The notes: a model not told the origin generated them from the sequence alone. A stretch of DNA of 38,107 nucleotides from Candidatus Altimarinota bacterium (GCA_043756665.1 JAYUQR010000045.1:1-38107), one strand, 5' to 3'; counted from the stretch's first letter, positions 4,853 to 37,189 are shown. Numbers and translations are program-made.

Positions 4853-5232
4853 TATACGGATTTCTGAGAAAAATAAAAGGTTTTTCCATATTTATTCAGG
4901 AGAAAGAAGGCTATAATCGCTATAGATAGCCTTTGTATCCCTGACCAGTGAAGGAGATGGAAGAGTTTACAAGCGAATTTATAGTTTGATTTATAGTATC
5001 CTATACCAAGACGAAATTGGAGATCGTGTTCGATCGAGAGCTCACGAATATCATCGAGGAGACACTGGGCTTTCTCACTATCATATCACGGTAAAAGCTC
5101 TATATTTGCGAATAAAGCCTTTTCGAGATTCTTTCCCTCACCACCTACCCCGTTTGTTATTCCGCATTGAGATAGGCATGTTTTCTCGTGTTCTGAGAGG
5201 CTATATTCCAGTATCGTCTCGATTGTTCTCAT
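4852..5232 (-). CDS. hypothetical protein (126 aa) with short C-terminal hydrophobic segment
   Basis: ATG 5232; TAA 4852-4854 overlaps the next ATG (TAATG). Product MRTIETILEYSLSEHEKTCLSQCGITNGVGGEGKNLEK...IQRLSIAIIAFFLLNKYGKTFYFSQKSV. It overlaps the 3' end of the upstream gene by 32 nt. Confidence 0.65.
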
Positions 5233-5377: not shown

Positions 5378-6028
5378 TTAGAAGAAGGGGAAGAAGTTTG
5401 ATTTAATGGAAGTCACAGAGGGGGCAAGTGAGAACATTGTTCCATTATACTCTTGTGAAGCGGATGTAATATTCATTGACTTGCTTCCTGCGGGAGTTTG
5501 CGAGCTGTTTGAATCTGCGATAAAAAGACCTGTAAATAGTACCTCGATATTCGCTCGTATGAAAGTATTGGCTCATGCTGTGATAGCTAATCAGCTTCTT
5601 CATTTAGAGCACATAATAAGCCAAGTATCATTTTCTATGGTTGTTACTGTTTGCGTCCATGAGGTTGTGGTTGTTGGTCAGTTTGTAACTGTTGCATCTG
5701 GCACTCCAGATTGCCTAGCTCCCGTATAAGAAGCTATGTGACACATGATTACTCACGAAGTAGCTACCGTAATGACTACATTATTTGCTCCAGTAAGTGG
5801 GGCAATAAGTCAAAATGTAGAGGTGCTATTTCATACACCATCTGTACTTGTTGTCCCTATTTGTGTCATAGCGACTCCTCCATAAGTTACAGATGATATA
5901 GTTGTACTATGTCCAACATTTACCGTTAAGAATCTATTGGCTCCACTACAAGTATGAGATTGAGTCATAGTGGTGCCAGCATTTACCCTAGCTGCGGGCG
6001 TGGTAGTAGAGTCAAAAGCAATTGCCAT
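5378..6028 (-). CDS. virion protein, possible minor tail / receptor-binding protein (216 aa)
   Basis: Track ORF 5831..6028 extended through TGA codons to TAA 5378-5380. Product MAIAFDSTTTPAARVNAGTTMTQSHTCSGANRFLTVNVGHSTTISSVTYGGVAMTQ... is Ser/Thr-rich and beta-type, and lies downstream of a fibre gene. Confidence 0.7.
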
Positions 6029-6262
6029 TTATTTCACAATATTAGGAATAAGAGCGATCGCCTTTGCCATAGCCTCTCCCATCTTCGCCATTACTTCTAG
6101 CCTATCCTGTTCTGAATAATCAGGATTATCGACAGAAGTGCCGAGCCAGTTAGTAAGACTATCATAGTTTGCTTTGGCATTTTCAATTCATGAATCGAGC
6201 CCATCTATCCATGATTTGATTTGTAGGGCTGTGAGTTGTTTTGGTGTAGTTTCGAGAAACAT
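6029..6262 (-). CDS. hypothetical protein (77 aa)
   Basis: ATG 6262, TAA 6029-6031 abutting the next ATG. Product MFLETTPKQLTALQIKSWIDGLDSGIENAKANYDSLTNWLGTSVDNPDYSEQDRLEVMAKMGEAMAKAIALIPNIVK. Confidence 0.6.
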
Positions 6263-6273
6263 AGAGAGAAAAA

Positions 6274-7038
6274 TTAGTGATTATCATCCTTGGAGATCAG
6301 ATCCCATTTAGCGTCTGCACCATTATAGAAAAATAATAGATACATGGTCTTACTGATTATGGTTGTGGTTGGGAGGGTTGTATCTCCTCATCTGTATATA
6401 GCATTCCAAGTGATAGCACGGGCAGTACCATTATCTTTCATTCGTACTATGATGAGATTCCCATCGGCTGGAGTTCATGATGGAGCAGAGAATGTTGGAG
6501 CTACTGCGAGGGCTGTGATCGTCATATAGTTTCTGAGACTTCATCCAGTAGGTGTAGGAGTGGCACTCGATGCTGTGGTAGTATTCTCACTTATGACATT
6601 GCTCGATGCTATCATCGTCTTATTCGTGAGCGTATCAGTAGTAGCCCGACCGAGGAGTGTATCACTAGAGTCCTGGAGAGTATAGGTTCTATCTGCCGTA
6701 TTCGTATTCGTGAAAAAACTCGTGAATGTATTCGCTACATTACGAAGCCCGAACATGCCTGAGAGGAATGTTTTGAGTCATGATACGGTTTGAGTAGAGG
6801 CAAGGATCATATCGCCTGCTCACGCAGATACATTGAGTGTTGTTCCTGTGAAAGAAAGTCCTGTACCGAGTGTGATCTCCTCTATTGCTCCTGTGCCTGC
6901 TGTAGCACGCCCGAGGAGCTTATTGTTCGTTACACTATCCTCTTTTTTTGTAGTGTTGAGATTTGTGAAATTCGTATTGATAGTGCTTCGATCTGTGGCG
7001 ATAACGCCAGGTCCAAGAAGTGTAGTTATAGTACTCAT
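6274..7038 (-). CDS. tail fibre-like protein (254 aa)
   Basis: Track ORFs 6820..7038 and 6541..6756 are in one frame and join through TGA; stop TAA 6274-6276. It has a repeated LLGRAT motif (NNKLLGRATAGTGAIEEITLG and SDTLLGRATTDTLTNKT) of the kind seen in phage fibre proteins, plus a Thr/Ser-rich beta C-terminus. Confidence 0.7.
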
Positions 7039-7042
7039 ATTT

Positions 7043-7228
7043 TTAGATTATTGTTCTTCCTACGTAGGCGGTTAAGGCTGTTCATACGCCTGCTGTGTCC
7101 CAAGTATAGGTTGCTGTATCCCAAGTATCTGGACACGAGTCCCATGTGAAATAATTGAAGTCACCTGGCTTCATTCTTCATGCAGATGTCGTTGTCGGGA
7201 TGATTCTTCATACGTAAGGTGTAGGCAT
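7043..7228 (-). CDS. small Trp-repeat protein (61 aa)
   Basis: ATG 7228, TAA 7043-7045. Product MPTPYVGRIIPTTTSAGRMKPGDFNYFTWDSCPDTWDTATYTWDTAGVGTALTAYVGRTII has three TWD repeats. Confidence 0.5.
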
Positions 7229-21235: not shown

Positions 21236-21248
21236 AGTAAATAGTTTA

Positions 21249-21277
21249 CTCCCTACCCTCCGAAGAGAGCAGGAGAG
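21249..21277 (-). terminator. stable stem-loop with cUUCGg tetraloop, 5 nt after a stop codon (terminator or mRNA-stabilising hairpin)
   Basis: The minus-strand RNA cucuccugcucuc-uucg-gaggguagggag gives about 10 bp including G-U pairs. There is no clear U-tract afterwards. Its core is repeated at 28228..28252. Confidence 0.4.
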
Positions 21278-21281
21278 AAAA

Positions 21282-21524
21282 CTATTTAGAAGCTTTTTCT
21301 TCCTTTACCTCGCTAAAACCGTACGCTGTTAGTGCAGAAAGGAGTTCTGACCTTTCATTTGTAGAGATTGCCTCCTTCGTTGTGAATTCTACTCCTTCCT
21401 CGTCAATTTCAACGACTTTCTTTTTAAGATTGTCAATATCTATTGAGAGACTTCCTTTGTCATCAGAAATGAATCGATAACCAAGACGATGAACTGGTTT
21501 ATTTGGTGGTCATTTGAACAACAT
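21282..21524 (-). CDS. hypothetical protein (80 aa) downstream of the capsid gene
   Basis: ATG 21524, TAG 21282-21284. Product MLFKGPPNKPVHRLGYRFISDDKGSLSIDIDNLKKKVVEIDEEGVEFTTKEAISTNERSELLSALTAYGFSEVKEEKASK. Confidence 0.6.
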
Positions 21525-23374: not shown

Positions 23375-23625
23375 AGATTAGGAATATGAGTAAATAACGT
23401 GTTTTTTTGGATTATATCCTCGTATACTTTCTGTTGCCTAGCAAAGAGACTGGTTTCTTCCATCATTTTATGCGATTCTTCGCTCGTAGGATCAAAATTA
23501 GAGTTTTGCATTTGCTTTTTCATAGTTTCCATAAGAAGCTCATCTCGCATTCTCTTAATGAGAGCCCATCCTGCATGAGACATAAAATCTATGAGAAGAT
23601 TCTTATTTTGTTGTGATAATTCCAT
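23365..23625 (-). CDS. hypothetical protein (86 aa)
   Basis: ATG 23625 overlaps the portal stop (TAATG). The frame reads through TGA 23371-23373 to TAG 23365-23367. Product MELSQQNKNLLIDFMSHAGWALIKRMRDELLMETMKKQMQNSNFDPTSEESHKMMEE... Confidence 0.6.
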
Positions 23626-25472
23626 TATATCGGGAGTAAAGGATTAGAATTTTGCTGGCCTGCAATATTATTCATAGCAATATTTGCGGTTGTACCATCT
23701 GATACACCTGCATCCTGTATCTCGAATGTTCGAGTATCCTGTATAAGTTGATCAATTCGCTCTATAATCTTTCGTTTGGCTGGAGTGTTAATGGCTTGTG
23801 AATAGATCTGACGGAGAGTGAGGAGATTCTGTCATGCGATAGGTTCAGAGATTTGTATATTATTATTAAGAAGCTCGATATTGTTGTTTGCTTCCCACTC
23901 ATCGACATCAGGAGGGATGACTGTCATAGGATCGAGATCTCGTATGCCTGATTTCTCTATGAGTGTTCTCAGGAGTACATTCATGGCATATCCTGGCTTC
24001 ATATTCGGCATCAATAGGTTTGCACTTGCTATAAGCTTCTGATAATCTTGATCATCCTGTGAACGTTTTTCTTCCTGAGAGACGACATAGATATTGATTT
24101 GTGATCCAGAAAGAAACTCTTTTTTGAGGAGAGTTCTGGAGTATGCTTTACCATTATCATAGAGAGCGATATTGAGGGAGCTTTTATCTCACATATAGAG
24201 CTCATATGAGTTAAATATATCTTCCCACATCTTCTCGTATGAGTCCATGTAGTTATCTCGTATCATTCTGTGTATTCGGCTTGCCTTCTGTTCCATTATC
24301 TGGACTTCTGCTTTTGTTTGACTTCATGGAGCCGAAGATCAGAATGCTATATCCCTATTTCCGCTTGTCTCTTGTGCCATCGTATCATTAAATTTTATTG
24401 CCTCTAGCACTGCTCCACTTGATTTATTGTGAGGAAGCTCTACAAATGCCGACTCATTACCGAGCTCATCAAATTTAGCCGCATACATAGCTCAACCAGG
24501 GCTTGTCTTATCAAGCTTCTCAGCATTCAGTCCGAGTTTATAATTGATAAGGTAGTCACTTCCGAGAGCATCACGTCTCGCAGAGATATTATAGAGATTG
24601 GACAGCTCGCTCATATTCTTCTGGTACTGTATCACCTCATCATAGAGGCTAGCGCCAAAGGCAGAATTTGGAATAGGTTTTCGTCTATGGAGCTGGATAG
24701 GATACCTTATCTTCATTGGATTCAGTTTCTCGGCTTTTGTCATGGGGTCAAGCACTACATATCTCAGAAGATTCGCAAATTCAGAGTCCCATATAGTGAG
24801 ATACTTGTATCATTCAAACGAAGTGAAGTGATATTTTATCGAAATCATTTCGTCATCTGGAACATCTTGTAAGCGATTCGCACTTGCTCGTGACTGTTCT
24901 GTCCTTCTCCATTCCTCGGATACGTTGGCAATTACAGATTTACGAGCTTTTTTATCATATTTCTCATTGTCACGGACATATCAGATCGTCATTTGTTTTT
25001 CTAGTCCGATAAATCTCATTTCTGAATCACAATAATTCTTGGGATCAAGAATAAGAGAGAGAGGGTCAATATGGGCGAGGAGTGGACATACCTCATCATC
25101 ATCGAAAGCTTCAATAAATGTTGCAGAGATTCCATAGAGATTATTATCATCTATGATTTGCCTCTTGATCTTTTTCACTCCCAGCTTTCGATAGAGGTGT
25201 TTTGCCACTTTATTTCGATTCTCAGTGATCTCATCTTCGAGGACTCACTTTTCTGAGACAGTCACTATATCGAGTTCATCGGTCAAAAAAGTAGCAGTTT
25301 CTAGTTGCATATGCTTCCATAGAAGATTCTGTTTTACAAAGCCTTCCTGTGGTTCTTCGAGGATTTTTTTATCGACATTCCTTTTTCGTTCTCGTTCACC
25401 CTTAATATGGTCATATCACATCTGATACTCCTTTTGTACCTTATTCCTGAGAGCTTCAATATTTTTTACCAT
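23625..25472 (-). CDS. portal protein candidate (615 aa)
   Basis: Track ORFs 24981..25208, 24492..24755 and 23832..24014 share one frame, and all gaps translate without TAA/TAG. ATG 25472, TAA 23625-23627. The call rests on size and position, directly after the large terminase and before scaffold/capsid. Confidence 0.7.
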
Positions 25473-25527: not shown

Positions 25528-27048
25528 TTATACTTTTCTTGCGAAGCTCCACATTTGTACATCTTTTGGCTTTATCTTGTTCTTATAGCTCACTCAGAGG
25601 TATCTGAATGCGTCACTTCAGTTTGAATTTATGTCGTGCTTTGGCTTATCCCTGAATATTCCATTCTTCTCATCGTATTCCCTTCGGTATCATGCGAGTC
25701 TGGTGAGTCCGACACTTGTTGTCTCTTCGCTAAAAAAACAGTAAGGAAACATATCTCGAACTGCATTAATCCCATCAGAGATAGAGAGCTTGGGCACTAC
25801 TTCTACCTTGCCCTTCAGATACTGTCTTGCTGTTTGTATTCTTGCTACTCCCATAGAGTATTCTGTGACCTCTGCATCGTGTGGGAGATAGTGAGTGTCG
25901 TACTTCTCATATCGAGTATTCACTATACTCATCGCTATCTCTGTAAGACCATAGCCTGATCCTTCCCAGTAATCTATAAGTCTCACTTCTCTCCCGAGTA
26001 TCTGATAGAACCATATGGCAGTCTCATCTCATCATCCTGCTCATCAGAGATCCCAGTGAGTATTTATGGGGAGTCTAGGATCATATGGGAATCTTCACAC
26101 TCTATTTTGACTTCTTGTGATTCCTAGTTCCTTCTCGTAGTACGCTCACTTGATGGCAAGGTCAAATGCCTCCTTAGGATAGCTTGGATATTCTCTGAGC
26201 ATATCTTCGTGCTGTTCCTCTCTCTTCTTCTGATACCATCTCATTTTTTTCTCAGCGAATCGTATGTCTGAGTGATTCTTCCGTATCCAGGAGTCTTGTT
26301 GTACTTTTTTGAAATATTCGCGAGTCTCGCTTGTTATTACTTCTCAGGATTCTAGCTCATATTCATCATCCAGCCACCAAGCATAGAAGTGAAACTTGTA
26401 ATCCATATCAGTGAGCTCTTTCCCCATCTCTTGGAGCTCCATTGCTTTCGTACACATATCGTAATAGTTTCCTGAGTTTCCCTCTGCCGTACTTTCTATA
26501 TCCACTTCACTTGTTGGGGCTACTGTATTGAGGGCTCCTGTCTGTATTTCTCTTGCCTTCTCTGGATACTTGTTACAGATCTTCCCGTATTCTGATATAT
26601 GGAGATGCTGAAGTGTTCCCCCCCGAAAAGAGGTATCTATCGATACAGAACAATGGTTGGATTCGAATACAAGTTCTCACTTTCGATCTGTCTTTACTTT
26701 GAAGGTATCTTTCAACCACTTCGGTAGGTTATCGAATGCGAACTTTACCTTGTCCCGGAATATAAGCTCTGCACTGTCTCGATCGTCTGCAATGATACCC
26801 ATTGATTTGTAAGAGGAGAAGAGAGCTTTGTCTAGTATCATTACATCTATGAACGTAGAAAATCCCAATTGACGAGCTTTAAGGATTATATTCTTCGTAT
26901 GTCTGTTGTGATAGTAGTGAGTCTGTTGCTTGTTTGGTATGAACGGGATTTTATTCCCTTGCTTATCTTTAATCGAATAAAGCTTTCACGAAAACAATCG
27001 CCACTCCTTATCTCCCAGATATGTCTTGATTTGTTCTAATTCGGTCAT
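25528..27048 (-). CDS. terL: terminase large subunit (506 aa)
   Basis: ATG 27048, TAA 25528-25530. ATPase motifs are NIILKARQLGFSTF (Walker A-like) and TLQHLHISEYGK. Nuclease motifs are HWDLGGAGGGDETAIWFYQ and NGSDAFRYLGV. Many motif glycines are TGA, for example 25618-25620. Confidence 0.92.
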
Positions 27049-27119
27049 AAAACACAATATGTAGTTTATGAATTGCTAAAAGGTCTATTTTTTATCTACC
27101 TACCCACTATATGTAGTGT

Positions 27120-27503
27120 CTATTGTAGTCATTGAATCTCTGATAATACAGATCATAGGATATTAAGGTTCTCAGTCGCTTTCCCTGTTATTAGCTGATT
27201 TTGTTTAAAAGTAGATTCCCTTAAGCTCGTCAACTGTGCGATTGTAATAGATTCATCCTCACTCTCTATCATCTTTTGAATTAAAACGTCTGCAAGGGAC
27301 TGTAGATTATTGTTTCTGGTAACTAAATCAGCTACTCATATGCTTTCTTCGCAAACTTCGGCAAATTTAGTGTGGATAATATGATTTACTGTTCGCTCAG
27401 GTATTCAGAGATCTTTGGCGATCTCTGTACCTTGTGCGTTCGTATTTATCTTAGCTTCAACTACTTTTGCTATTATTTCGTCGTTTGTTTTTTTACCTCT
27501 CAT
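27120..27503 (-). CDS. terS: terminase small subunit candidate (127 aa) with N-terminal helix-turn-helix
   Basis: ATG 27503, TAG 27120-27122. Product MRGKKTNDEIIAKVVEAKINTNAQGTEIAKDLGIPERTVNHIIHTKF... It lies directly upstream of terL. Confidence 0.6.
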
Positions 27504-27507
27504 AATT

Positions 27508-27642
27508 TTATCGATTATTGATATGCTCATTGATACTGAACAATACTCTATTAATCGCTTCAGTATTGAATACTTCGAGATTGTTATCTTTCAGGAATTT
27601 CTTGTAGATTTGTTCGTTTGACGGTTGTGGTGTTTCTGGCAT
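27508..27642 (-). CDS. small ORF (44 aa)
   Basis: ATG 27642, TAA 27508-27510. Product MPETPQPSNEQIYKKFLKDNNLEVFNTEAINRVLFSINEHINNR. Confidence 0.4.
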   Translation of the reverse strand: MPETPQPSNEQIYKKFLKDNNLEVFNTEAINRVLFSINEHINNR

Positions 27643-27714
27643 TTTTAGTAAAAATTATCGCAATTATAATCATCATCCATTCTATCAAGTGTGTGTTCGT
27701 CCATAATCGTAAGA

Positions 27715-28104
27715 TTAGAATATATCAGGAAGTCACTGAGGATGAGAACCGAAGATATCACGAGCATGAGTCAGTTTATTCAATTCATAGCACTCTCTGG
27801 CTATTCCTACTGCTTTCTTCGTTAACTTATCGCTTGTGATACATTCTATCTCAGTGAGAGTATCGTAGAACATCATAGTCTGAGAGTTAGCGAACCTGAG
27901 TTCACTTACTCCTGCATCGACTATAGATTCAGAGAGTGCAAGCTTTGCATCCAGGTCTTTCACTTCCTGATCATGAGATTCGAGCTTCTTGATCGCTTTC
28001 TCGATTATCATTCAGAGATTGATTGGGTTGGGTTGTTCACCTTCTCCTCCTCGTCTCCATTCGTTGTATTCTGTGAGGTATCGTATAATTTTTTTGTTCT
28101 TCAT
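27715..28104 (-). CDS. hypothetical protein (129 aa), first gene after the 28.1-kb terminator/promoter junction
   Basis: Track ORF 27733..28011 extended through TGA on both sides; ATG 28104, TAA 27715-27717. Product MKNKKIIRYLTEYNEWRRGGEGEQPNPINLGMIIEKAIKKLESHDQEVKDLDAKLAL... Confidence 0.65.
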
Positions 28105-28138
28105 GTGAGTATTATACTCAGAATTTATATAAAATCAA
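28105..28138 (-). promoter_or_regulatory. sigma70-like promoter candidate for the late operon, geometry compatible with a leaderless mRNA
   Basis: The minus strand reads TTGATT (28138-28133), 16 nt, TATAAT (28116-28111), 6 nt, ATG (28104). The -35 element overlaps the U-tract of the upstream terminator. Confidence 0.35.
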
Positions 28139-28164
28139 AAGAGAAATCCCCTATTATGGGGATT
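28131..28164 (-). terminator. rho-independent terminator on the minus strand
   Basis: On the minus strand, aatcccc-ataata-ggggatt (28164-28145) is followed by tctcttttgatttt. Confidence 0.6.
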
Positions 28165-28199
28165 ATATCACGAGTGATACCTTCTCAGGATAAGTCCTG

Positions 28200-28262
28200 C
28201 GAGGTGAGACTAAGAGCCTCACCTCGACCCTACCATCCGAAGAGAGTAGGAGTCGAGGTGAG
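28200..28262 (-). promoter_or_regulatory. mutually exclusive RNA helices (attenuator/antiterminator-like) between a stop codon and the terminator
   Basis: Segment B ctcacctcgac (28218-28228) is perfectly complementary to both A cgaggtgag (28200-28208) and C gtcgaggtgag (28252-28262). The B/C helix encloses a cUUCGg-capped inner stem (28229-28250). Confidence 0.5.
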
Positions 28263-28270
28263 CAAGTAGA

Positions 28271-28672
28271 TTATAATACTTCTGTCACTGTCCAGTTATT
28301 ATAATTAGCGATTTTGTATTTTTTTATTCCATCGACGGAGATGAAGTATTCTCCTGTCCTGATTGTATATGTGTCTGTCTCTCCATTGCGGAGGAGAAGT
28401 GGCTCAAGTCCGTCGTCACCCATACATCCTTTTCGAATTTTATTCCATTCCCCTCTTCGGTTCTCTGTCTCATCAGCAATTATATACTGAGCATTCCATT
28501 GTGCGTCATCCCGACGAGTGACTGTGATGGTCTCTTTGCCATCGATTCTGTCAATATTCTTCGAATCTCGAATCTTCTCCCCGATCTGGTATGTCTTAGT
28601 AGTAGCGGTAGTCATAAGTGGAAGGACTTTCACCTTTTGCCCGTTGGGGTCTAAGATAGTAGATGGTATCAC
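28271..28672 (-). CDS. hypothetical protein (133 aa; 114 aa if ATG 28615 is used)
   Basis: The track ORF has a GTG start at 28672, 9 nt after an in-frame TAG; stop TAA 28271-28273; no TGA. Product (M)IPSTILDPNGQKVKVLPLMTTATTKTYQIGEKIRDSKNIDRIDGKETITVTRRDDAQWNAQYIIADETENRRGEWNKIRKG... The start is uncertain. Confidence 0.65.
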   Translation of the reverse strand: MIPSTILDPNGQKVKVLPLMTTATTKTYQIGEKIRDSKNIDRIDGKETITVTRRDDAQWNAQYIIADETENRRGEWNKIRKGCMGDDGLEPLLLRNGETDTYTIRTGEYFISVDGIKKYKIANYNNWTVTEVL

Positions 28673-28776
28673 TCGTTGTCTCTATTGTTTTGACTCTCAG
28701 GGAGAGGCGGGAGATCCGCTTGTTGCGAGGTGATGGATGCAGTATATTCTTATTCTCCATGAAGTCAATATAATGA

Positions 28777-28935
28777 CTACATATTATCTTGACTTTCTCT
28801 TGTTTCCTTCTGTCTTTCCCTATAATCCATAAGAGAAATACGTCTAGTAAGCCAAGAACGCCTTGTTTGCAACTCTTTGATTTCTTTTGCTATTTTCTCT
28901 CGTTCTTCGAGATATTGTATACGATTTTTATTCAT
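28777..28935 (-). CDS. hypothetical coiled-coil protein (52 aa)
   Basis: ATG 28935, TAG 28777-28779. Product MNKNRIQYLEEREKIAKEIKELQTRRSWLTRRISLMDYRERQKETRESQDNM. Confidence 0.5.
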   Translation of the reverse strand: MNKNRIQYLEEREKIAKEIKELQTRRSWLTRRISLMDYRERQKETRESQDNM

Positions 28936-28940
28936 AAAAA

Positions 28941-29339
28941 TTAAAATGATGAAAGTATTAGATTCTTCTCGGACGGAGTTATAGTCGTTGCATGTCTCAT
29001 TGGGAACATCTTATTGAGTCATTCTGTGAATTGGATTGGGAATATTCCATACTTATCCTTACATTCACACACCTCATGCATACTGTGCCTTACAGCGAAG
29101 TCACATACATAACGATCTCATCCATTCTGCTGTCTCACTATCTCGCGGAATCATAGATAGTCTCTCCATAGTCAATCATGGAGTGTTTTACCTGTATCTG
29201 CATCGTGGATCTCTAGAGAATCGCTGTAGTTAGCGAGCTTTTGATCTATTTTTAGTTTTTGATACTGATTCTCAGTGATGGGAATCTCTCGATCCTTAGT
29301 GAGTTCGAGTATGTGGGTTCGTGGGTTTGTAGTGAGCAT
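28941..29339 (-). CDS. hypothetical protein (132 aa), possible PD-(D/E)xK-type nuclease
   Basis: ATG 29339, TAA 28941-28943, four in-frame TGA. The segment ...GGDRYVCDFAVRHSMHEVCECKDKYG resembles the D ... (D/E)xK core of restriction-endonuclease-fold enzymes. This is a weak motif-level call. Confidence 0.6.
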
Positions 29340-29357
29340 TTTTTAGAAAATTATAAA

Positions 29358-30053
29358 TTAAACAACGGTTCCTCTCCTCGGTCGATTCTCTATCTCTGAC
29401 TTCTTATTGACCGCGTCATTGTATACTTGTGCATAATGCTTATACACTGTCTCTGCATTATATACCTTCCCATTCCAGAAGTCGAGCCTCGACGATATAA
29501 AAATAATCTGCTTACAGAATTCTATGCGTGACATATTCGCTTTCTCACAGATCTCTCAGAATTCTTTTCAGGAAAGTATATTTTTTGCTCGTTCCCGTTC
29601 GTATTTTCATTTCCGATAAATGAGCCCAAGGTGCTCTACTTGTCACTGTATGATTTCGAGGAGATCATTGATTTCTTCATTTCTGAATTCTTGTTGTACG
29701 ACGAGAGCTTGCTCTCATTCTTCTTTAGAAGAATTTTGATTTGAATTGACTTGGTTTGACTTGGTTTGACTTGGTTTGGTCGCACGTTTTTTTAAATCTT
29801 CTCGCCCCATAGGTCGCCCCATAGGTGCGAGATCTATTCTAAGCGGATTTCATTTTTTCGAGCTCGCTTTATTCTCAATTTGTACAGCCTCCGTCCAAAT
29901 ACTCAAAACTACCCCTCATCTCATCGATTGTTCTATGTCGATAATCTCTCCGATCGATAGCCTCATAAGAGAATCGAATACGTACGCCTTATCAGAATCG
30001 ACCATATAGGTAATCTGCATGGCGTAGTGTGTTGGGATCCGAAGTATGTCCAT
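29358..30053 (-). CDS. putative replication initiator / DNA-binding protein (231 aa) with tandem DNA repeats inside its linker-coding region
   Basis: ATG 30053, TAA 29358-29360, seven in-frame TGA. It is the first gene of the leftward module. The central low-complexity segment LAPMGRPMGREDLKKRATKPSQTKSNQVNSNQNSSKEE is encoded by the repeats at 29748..29825. The function is inferred from this architecture only. Confidence 0.65.
29748..29777. repeat. three perfect tandem 10-bp repeats (gacttggttt), iteron-like
   Basis: gacttggttt occurs at 29748, 29758 and 29768. It is preceded by degenerate tttga units, so the TTGAC cores are spaced one helical turn apart. Confidence 0.9.
29802..29825. repeat. 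two perfect tandem 12-bp repeats (tcgccccatagg)
   Basis: tcgccccatagg occurs at 29802 and 29814. An A/T-rich tract tttttttaaat (29787-29797) separates it from the 10-bp repeats. Confidence 0.9.
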
Positions 30054-36614: not shown

Positions 36615-36908
36615 ATGAAAAAATTATCATGACGTGCACTTTATAAAACTCTCGAAAGTGAGAAGAGGCAAATAAGTGCATGAAGGGATGCAAATTCTAT
36701 CATATATGGCAATGGTATCCGTGACAAGTATTGCCAGTATATGCTGAGGGCGAAAGCTGATCTATATAGCTGGCGACATTCTGTACGGCATAGAACACTA
36801 TGCAATGGAATACTCCATAGAAAACTCATTTATCGTCTCAAGAAAGAGCGACAAGAGAGCATAGAAAAAAGACTTATGGCAAGCATCTATGATATGTCCA
36901 ACCAGTAG
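36615..36908 (+). CDS. hypothetical basic protein (97 aa); frame choice uncertain
   Basis: ATG 36615 lies 1 nt after the upstream stop; stop TAG 36906-36908. Product MKKLSGRALYKTLESEKRQISAGRDANSIIYGNGIRDKYCQYMLRAKADLYSWRHSV... An alternative 58-aa ORF in another frame (36688..36864) also looks protein-like. Confidence 0.4.
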
Positions 36909-36982
36909 GCTTGACTCCCCGTATGTGAAACGCCTCTATATGATCCATAGAGGAATTGCTTACCACCTAGGCGGGGTCAAGC
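36909..36982 (+). other. compound stem-loop directly after a stop codon, at the start of a ~280-nt gene-poor stretch
   Basis: The outer helix pairs gcttgac(t)cccc(g) (36909-36921) with cggggtcaagc (36972-36982). An inner 7-bp hairpin is cctctat-atgatcc-atagagg (36933-36953). Confidence 0.4.
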
Positions 36983-37189
36983 TTATTGCTTGTTGCCAAG
37001 ATTCCCTTATGAAGCATTTGTAGATAATCGCCTAGATTTATAAATGAAGATCGAGCTTCTGGTACTCCAGTACATAGCGCTACTTTGGCTCGATCGGCTG
37101 CAAGGGAGAAAGAAGATTTGCTCCACAAGCCTGAGTTTTCTTTTTCCTTTGTCTTCATGGTGTTTTATAAAAATTTTACACTACTATAT

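Follow-up and report, generated by a model that had tools for sequence, protein, structure and literature searches.

The window analysed here, a stretch of 38,107 nucleotides, is an entire contig and the longest of the 160 contigs in a 1.36-Mb MAG, with a G+C content of 38.3% against 42.3% for the MAG. Read with the standard code it holds short ORFs only; with TGA read as sense, long minus-strand genes of 1357, 1297, 949, 615, and 509 aa appear, and 73 TGA codons fall within the one 1297-codon gene. Because the TerL nuclease motif DLGGAGGGDE is encoded with four TGA codons, we assign TGA to glycine (code 25). TerL (25528-27057) was identified by its match to PHROG 2, and the window also encodes an SU10-type portal (23625-25472), an SU10-type adaptor, and, on the strand opposite to the leftward genes, an ERF recombinase. 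The combination of TerL, SU10-type portal and adaptor, and ERF recombinase therefore points to a podophage-like contig that was placed in the bin of a Gracilibacteria-type host. ARAGORN detected neither tRNA nor tmRNA genes in the window. Phages using code 25 are already known for Gracilibacteria-type hosts, in a report that says nothing on their transcription signals (PMC10746230). Our literature search returned no described promoters, terminators, or translation-start rules for phages of code-25 candidate-phyla bacteria, and no description of the transcription signals of the uncultivated code-25 host bacterium.

The leftward genes run in the order g231, g132, g52, g133, a 166-nt gap, g129, a 44-aa ORF, a TerS-like gene, TerL, portal, and capsid. 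Upstream of the gap on the minus strand, g133 (28271-28672, 133 aa) ends in a TAA stop at 28273-28271 and is itself preceded by a promoter-like TTGACT-16-TATACT (28768-28741, minus). Its product has no Pfam or PHROG match and no homologue among 5.8 billion proteins, and its AF2 model is uninformative (pLDDT 34). Downstream of the gap, g129 (27715-28104, minus) encodes a helical protein of 129 aa, with two in-frame TGA=Gly codons in its translation and an in-frame Met32 (28011) as an alternative start. The AF2 model of g129, with long helices at pLDDT 75 and pTM 0.42, is likewise uninformative; the protein search returned g129 itself only, IMG/VR held no relative, and tblastn of g129 and g133 against 19 related loci found neither. 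The TerS-like gene (27120-27530, leftward) is kept directly upstream of TerL in six related loci, and its identity as TerS, which rests on this position and a weak HTH match, is putative. The TerS-like protein showed no similarity to the GP3_package-type protein of one related locus, L025. In two others, L011 and L012 (5001-7220), the TerL match falls into two pieces (residues 1-21 at 5001-5063, residues 5-494 at 5751-7220), which implies an insert of ~690 nt near the 5′ end of the terminase gene, such as an intron, a homing-endonuclease gene, or a duplication.

A reading of the sequence alone had proposed five elements between g133 and g129, and all five occur on the minus strand, with small corrections to positions and lengths. 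The 176-nt interval that holds them folds at -60.9 kcal/mol (z = -5.65), and none of 200 shuffles was as stable. At the DNA level the interval has no counterpart in the collections we searched. Neither blastn of 27000-29500 against 50,697 phage records nor a search of IMG/VR for the exact three-box pattern described below gave a match, an nhmmer search of 24 related loci (TerL 39-93% and capsid 52-93% identical) with the interval as query recovered the window itself only, and from 204 genomes of the host's order a query of 1 kb of DNA drew marginal A/T-rich matches only. In Rfam, no family matched any part of the window at gathering score, and relaxing the cutoff to E <= 10 over 28050-28330 brought up noise alone. 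Judged from these searches the interval is unique to this phage, and only the core of its first hairpin can be compared with relatives.

That first hairpin (hairpin 1, 28218-28262, minus), delimited by folding and by a covariance model, R1, starts 8 nt past the g133 stop. Its outer stem pairs segment A, CTCACCTCGAC (28262-28252), with segment B, GTCGAGGTGAG (28228-28218); within A:B lie a bulged U (28251) and then an inner stem (28250-28229) with a C(UUCG)G cap. This agrees with the UUCG-capped helix of ~20 bp that had been proposed, with B one base away from the position then implied. Folded alone, hairpin 1 reaches -30.9 kcal/mol. It does not overlap the stop, unlike the form in which the stop lies within the stem. 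A paralogue of this latter form occurs at 21236-21290 (minus), downstream of the capsid gene and of the 80-aa gene next to it, where it fills a 46-nt intergenic region and folds at -23.6 kcal/mol. The two copies share the same bulged-U, UUCG-capped core, that of hairpin 1 being identical to 21251-21275 at 23 of 25 positions, and the paralogue carries its stop codon inside a different outer stem, AAAUAGUUU/AAACUAUUU. Between the 28-kb and 21-kb copies an A-U pair becomes G.U and a C.U mismatch becomes C-G, the bulged U and the CCU...AGG core are kept, all three pairs below the bulge are swapped compensatorily or conservatively, and the whole outer stem is replaced.

In the window phage and in eight related loci, gathered through TerL and capsid protein matches, a hairpin of this family directly follows the small gene that comes after capsid. 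In an alignment of eight sequences (A1), 89% of cells are paired, as compared with 40-53% after a shift of the partners by 1-3 columns, and both sides have changed in 11 of 22 pairs, a number reached by none of 500 shuffles. R1 picked up two more members in far more divergent phages, L010 and L015; with these added, 90% of cells are paired and 13 of 22 pairs covary, in an alignment that leans towards structure because it was fitted to the model. R1 scores the 21-kb copy at 77.2 bits on the sense strand and 32 on the antisense strand, and the 28-kb copy, which is itself in the seed alignment, at 67.3 bits (E = 3e-13) and 22.3 bits, respectively. By folding energy, too, the sense strand is the more stable in nine of ten members. 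This sense-strand preference therefore indicates that the family acts as RNA. Hairpin 1 belongs to it by its bulged U, CCU...AGG core, 4-nt loop, and strand.

The C(UUCG)G hairpins of phage T4 are mostly intercistronic. As in T4 mRNA, a very stable capped stem here comes right after the coding region and is repeated within the genome; unlike in T4, the loop varies across the relatives of the window phage (UUCG, UUAG, UCAC, UACG, UUAU, UUUU), with the stem, the bulged U, and the CCU/AGG core conserved. The UUCG tetraloop itself was first noticed in T4 mRNA (PMC4371310).

Because they have no U-tract, hairpin 1 and most other members are not canonical terminators. At the same post-capsid position, more distant relatives carry unrelated hairpins, which in L027 and L028/L029 are canonical terminators with U-runs. 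Since terminators occupy this position in distant relatives, hairpin 1 and its family likely form or protect mRNA 3′ ends, and by analogy they could do so as a weak terminator, as an exonuclease barrier, or as an RNase III-type site. RNase III processing sites are found between the genes of phage T7. Hairpin 1, as known from its sequence, resembles those sites in being an intergenic, irregular helix of ~20 bp with a bulge, to which a mismatch is added here, and the host MAG contains a Ribonucleas_3_3 gene (RNase III, 114 bits).

R1 also matches weakly elsewhere. One match (24 bits, E = 0.013) lies on the plus strand at 36900-36992, in a compound hairpin after a TAG (36906-36908), and two others, at L023:4570-4625 (27 bits) and L021:38-76 (24 bits), lie in the 5′ leader of a g208-like gene, just downstream of the promoter cassette described below. 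A 14-nt match of A in host contig C7 was considered as a CRISPR spacer and rejected, as it lies inside a coding frame.

Downstream of hairpin 1 is a small hairpin (hairpin 2, 28179-28205, minus), whose cagga/tcctg core is present at 28199-28186 as had been claimed; the MFE structure extends it by pairing ACCUC with GAAGGU. The next element, at 28131-28164 (minus), is an intrinsic-terminator-like site, also as proposed. Here AATCCCC-ATAATA-GGGGATT (28164-28145) is followed by TCTCTTTTGATTTT, so that the transcript would carry an AAUCCCC/GGGGAUU stem with a 6-nt loop and then UCUCUUUUGAUUUU. The stem has 7 bp, four of them G-C, at -9.9 kcal/mol, and the tract TCTCTTTT has six T in its first eight positions, giving the G+C-rich stem-loop and U-rich tract of an intrinsic terminator. 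With the most G-C pairs, this site tops the list of terminator-like sites in the 18 kb scanned. In the host MAG such sites are enriched about two-fold (307 versus 150 +/- 15), and the host polymerase therefore presumably uses intrinsic terminators.

The order of these elements bears on one further role for the hairpins. HK022 put RNAs, which hairpins 1 and 2 resemble, bind the transcribing RNA polymerase and confer resistance to terminators. By analogy, hairpins 1 and 2 might make the polymerase resistant to the terminator 50 nt downstream, with the consequence that upstream transcription would always continue into the late genes. That the two are tandem bulged stem-loops just upstream of a terminator fits such a role, as does the retention of the bulged U and the CCU...AGG core in the family beyond what pairing needs. 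However, the canonical terminators at the family's post-capsid position in distant relatives have the opposite activity, and most family members have no terminator downstream; we regard a put-like function as very unlikely, and keep to the formation or protection of 3′ ends as the likely role.

A sigma-70-type promoter sequence overlaps the U-tract (28111-28138, minus). Its TTGATT (28138-28133), with the -35 inside the tract, is separated by a 16-nt spacer from TATAAT (28116-28111), for 10 of 12 matches, and 6 nt separate this hexamer from the g129 ATG (28104). The TTGATT-16-TATAAT-6-ATG arrangement had been noted before and has the sequence form of a sigma-70-type leaderless promoter. It heads the packaging and structural genes, as was also claimed, with the putative TerS, TerL, and the SU10-type portal downstream. 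Neither promoter-like matches (58 versus 60 expected) nor terminator-like sites (13 versus 9.5 expected) are enriched in the contig overall; support for both elements comes from their position and from relatives.

For the promoter, there is comparative support. TTGAT(A/T)-16-TATA(A/C)T-6-ATG recurs at 7228 in the window and at L023:9057, L025:14099, and L026:5248, before non-homologous proteins, and the same promoter-6-ATG geometry is found at the TerS-like gene of L011. Across the phage group, a -10 element lies exactly 6 nt before the ATG at 6 of 481 ORF starts, compared with 6 of 4190 other ATGs (about nine-fold, p = 6e-4); since some of these sites are orthologous, they amount to about three independent classes. 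In all contigs of the host MAG except the window, promoter matches number 24 at the 6-nt spacing versus ~9 at other spacings, and Shine-Dalgarno sequences precede 8.8% of ORF starts, without enrichment, which suggests that the Gracilibacteria-type host makes leaderless mRNAs. Leaderless mRNAs from a -10 element ~6-7 nt before the ATG are known in Actinobacteria, in Deinococcus, and for lambda cI transcribed from PRM. The present case resembles these systems in the enrichment of TATAAT-N6-ATG at ORF starts of both phage group and host and in the lack of a Shine-Dalgarno signal in the host, on evidence that is statistical and comparative. Because the geometry recurs and is enriched, the promoter is the best-supported part of the sequence-only reading.

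The interval also contains a third segment related to A and B. The exact 9-mer CTCACCTCG occurs three times in the 38-kb window, each time inside the interval, and the third copy, A′, lies at 28208-28200 (minus). It was claimed to pair with the same strand as A over 9 bp; the pairing is borne out, and its length is in fact 12 bp, between CGAGGTGAGGCT (28226-28215) and AGTCTCACCTCG (28211-28200) across the loop CTT, at -19.2 kcal/mol alone. As RNA this alternative hairpin (28200-28226, minus) reads CGAGGUGAGGCU, loop CUU, AGUCUCACCUCG; it contains A′, part of which (ACCUC) is engaged by hairpin 2 in the MFE structure. The mutual exclusivity proposed for A:B (11 bp plus the inner stem) and B:A′ (12 bp) holds, since both use B. 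The alternative fold, consisting of the inner stem and B:A′, lies 4.9 kcal/mol above the optimum and accounts for 0.6% of the ensemble (probability 0.006), and it takes over only once at least 6-9 nt of A are missing. Constrained folds form a further hairpin, hairpin 3 (GUAUCA-CUCG-UGAUAU, 28165-28180, minus), only in this alternative state. When the sequence was shuffled, 5 of 5000 versions gave B a downstream partner of the same quality as A′, and the real minus strand offers such a partner at about three other positions; A′ is unlikely to be chance (about 1e-3). As a separate observation, the sequence shared by A and A′ (CUCACCUCG) is similar to the canonical anti-Shine-Dalgarno end of 16S rRNA, and that of B (GAGGUGA) to a strong Shine-Dalgarno sequence; the host MAG lacks the 3′ end of the 16S rRNA.

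The sequence-only reading took this layout for a regulated read-through or antitermination switch, in which A:B and B:A′ would be the two states of a cis-acting device setting read-through into the late genes. Helix, helix, and terminator do follow one another as in an attenuator, and the helices exclude each other, the second of them with a partner of a quality rarely matched in shuffles. Neither helix, however, overlaps the terminator stem, which has no complementarity to A, B, or A′; the best duplexes between its arms and upstream sequence reach only -5.9 and -7.5 kcal/mol, and the stem has a probability of 0.9999 in either case, A free or A blocked. Because the terminator hairpin forms with P > 0.999 in both states, the alternative helices are uncoupled from termination, and because no alternative helix competes with the terminator stem, the defining feature of an attenuator is absent. 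In addition, A and B are transcribed before A′, so that A:B is made first as well as being the more stable; we found no leader peptide, ligand-binding fold, or Rfam family; and a ribosome terminating at the g133 stop would, judging from typical footprint sizes, reach only the first 1-2 nt of A. The corresponding regions upstream of TerS in relatives are A/T-rich and hold no analogous structure, folding at -0.10 to -0.13 kcal/mol per nt as compared with -0.35 here. The proposed switch is thus unsupported, and we consider it improbable.

Could the three segments act together in some other way? In P4 CI RNA (seqB against seqA and seqC) and in attenuators, as here, one strand is complementary to two flanking segments. 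Unlike in those systems, there is no link to a terminator, and no lysogeny genes were seen near the element. The Rfam families of phage immunity and antisense RNAs (P4 CI, P1/P7 C4) did not match at gathering score, nor did any relevant hit come up at E <= 10, and we treat the likeness as formal only. That A, B, and A′ make up a working RNA device in this phage of an uncultivated code-25 (Gracilibacteria-type) host has, in our estimate, a low probability, shared between two versions. In the first, A would be lost by cleavage or through the choice of 5′ end, leaving B:A′ as a 5′-terminal hairpin that sets the stability of the late mRNA; a T7-type cleavage would free B to refold with A′ in just this way. 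In the second, B would act in trans on A-like sequences, among them the copy with which the g133 transcript is predicted to begin, giving a P4-like RNA-RNA control of the transition from early to late expression. For a phage of this kind, a functional three-segment pairing would be the first regulatory RNA to be proposed.

A related and unlikely explanation is that the interval yields a stable small RNA of ~85-130 nt, ending at the terminator and derived either from the g133 3′ UTR or from a start near 28263, set by a TATAAT that overlaps the stop (28275-28270); as part of this same explanation, B could act in trans like seqB of P4 CI. Four TATAAT hexamers do occur on the minus strand within 28303-28111, and a strongly structured RNA with the complementary triple A/B/A′ precedes the terminator. 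The predicted transcript of g133 from TTGACT-16-TATACT begins at a fourth copy of the repeat, the 10-mer TCACCTCGCA (28733-28724, minus), which is identical to A′ with two bases added. Against this, no usable -35 accompanies the TATAAT at 28275 (TGGACA and GTGACA are at distances of 13 and 7 nt from it), Rfam and the homologue searches offered no relative, and the fourth copy is within chance genome-wide, at an estimated ~0.07, with nine 1-mismatch 9-mers found where five are expected.

The three boxes of 9-11 bp might also serve as double-stranded DNA sites for a phage protein, either pac-site boxes for TerS or an operator or activator site for the promoter. They are exact copies in alternating orientation, confined to the interval, with packaging genes nearby and the small terminase encoded 600 bp downstream, and the fold of the plus strand over the whole interval is no less stable than that of the minus strand (-63.3 versus -60.9 kcal/mol). 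On the other hand, the G.U pairs, the UUCG loop, and the strong sense preference seen in the family of hairpin 1 mark its core as an RNA feature. The box coordinates give spacings of 35 and 18 bp, out of helical phase; the boxes lie 100-150 bp upstream of the promoter; and the corresponding region of relatives has no such boxes. We think it unlikely that the boxes are protein-binding sites.

We therefore favor a simpler account, which we judge probable though by no means assured, that the interval is an ordinary boundary between transcription units, made up of a hairpin, a terminator, and a promoter, in a code-25 podophage. Hairpin 1 would be the local copy of a conserved, covarying hairpin that these phages put directly after a coding region, and its role would most likely be to form or protect the 3′ end of the upstream mRNA, whether by blocking 3′ exonucleases, by weak termination, or through processing of the RNase III type. 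The hairpin and U-tract at 28164-28131 would then end transcription from the upstream small-gene unit, which includes a moron-like cassette of promoter, g133, and hairpin. Finally, TTGATT-16-TATAAT would restart transcription exactly at the A of the g129 ATG, and the resulting leaderless mRNA would run into the putative TerS, TerL, and portal genes. The positions of these RNA ends, the function of the hairpin, and an early versus late timing are what we infer from the arrangement; late timing would need more to explain it than a sigma-70 promoter close to consensus. This account assigns A′ no clear role. In our reading A′ may be left over from a local duplication, or B may refold with it once the 5′ arm has been removed and not before; a switch driven by a sensor is not how we read it.

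Such a boundary has close parallels in moron-type cassettes and in the terminator-promoter boundaries of bacteria and phages in general: here, too, a G+C-rich hairpin, of 7 bp, with a U-tract follows the stop, and the next promoter overlaps the tract. As with morons, g133 has its own promoter-like site and no relatives. What sets this boundary, known so far as a sequence, apart from the general case is the extra 45-nt hairpin and the alternative helix between stop and terminator. The element is of an ordinary kind, and it is of value as a reference point from which to read the transcription signals of phages that infect code-25 candidate-phyla bacteria. Three results can be reused for this purpose: the covarying post-ORF hairpin family, captured as model R1; the conserved late-promoter cassette of the relatives, with its palindromic 16-nt spacer; and the statistical evidence, in both phages and host, for some mRNAs that start at the ATG and for translation that does not use Shine-Dalgarno sequences.

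The late region of the window contains several predicted promoters rather than one, as further intergenic -35/16/-10 sites on the minus strand lie at 25527-25500, 23135-23108, and 7262-7235, besides that at 28768-28741 upstream of g133. In relatives, the cassette TTGATAA-TGAGA-N5-TCTCA-TATAAT is conserved in the intergenic gaps that precede the portal gene and other late genes; in the form TTGAT(A/T)A-TGAGA-N5-TCTCA-TATA(A/C)T, with its 16-nt spacer palindromic, it also precedes g208-like genes and small tail-region genes. Copies are found at L023:2190, 4547, and 9030; L025:6858, 9245, 14072, and 20275; L010:6532 and 8718; L008:4037; L021:10 and 6103; and L026:666 and 5221. The sequence and placement of the cassette suggest a late promoter specific to the group, with an operator built into it. 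Where the window has gaps homologous to those of the relatives, its sites carry different spacers, for example with CCATGG in place of TGAGA...TCTCA before g208. Although TGAG-N7-CTCA is frequent in the relatives' cassettes, we rejected it as an operator common to the window and its relatives, as the one match in the window is at the level of chance and differs in register.

At the g129 promoter, a 15-nt perfect palindrome, TGAGTATAATACTCA (28106-28120, both strands), is centered on the -10 element and ends 1 nt before the ATG; it holds the window's one TGAG-N7-CTCA. It is possibly an operator, or else a hairpin masking the start codon on read-through transcripts, and its 6-bp hairpin is present in the MFE structure of the interval. 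Finally, an extended -10-like sequence, TGaTATAAT (28170-28162, minus), without a usable -35 and carried on the DNA of hairpin 3, overlaps the 5′ arm of the terminator; a transcript from it would start inside the terminator loop and escape termination.
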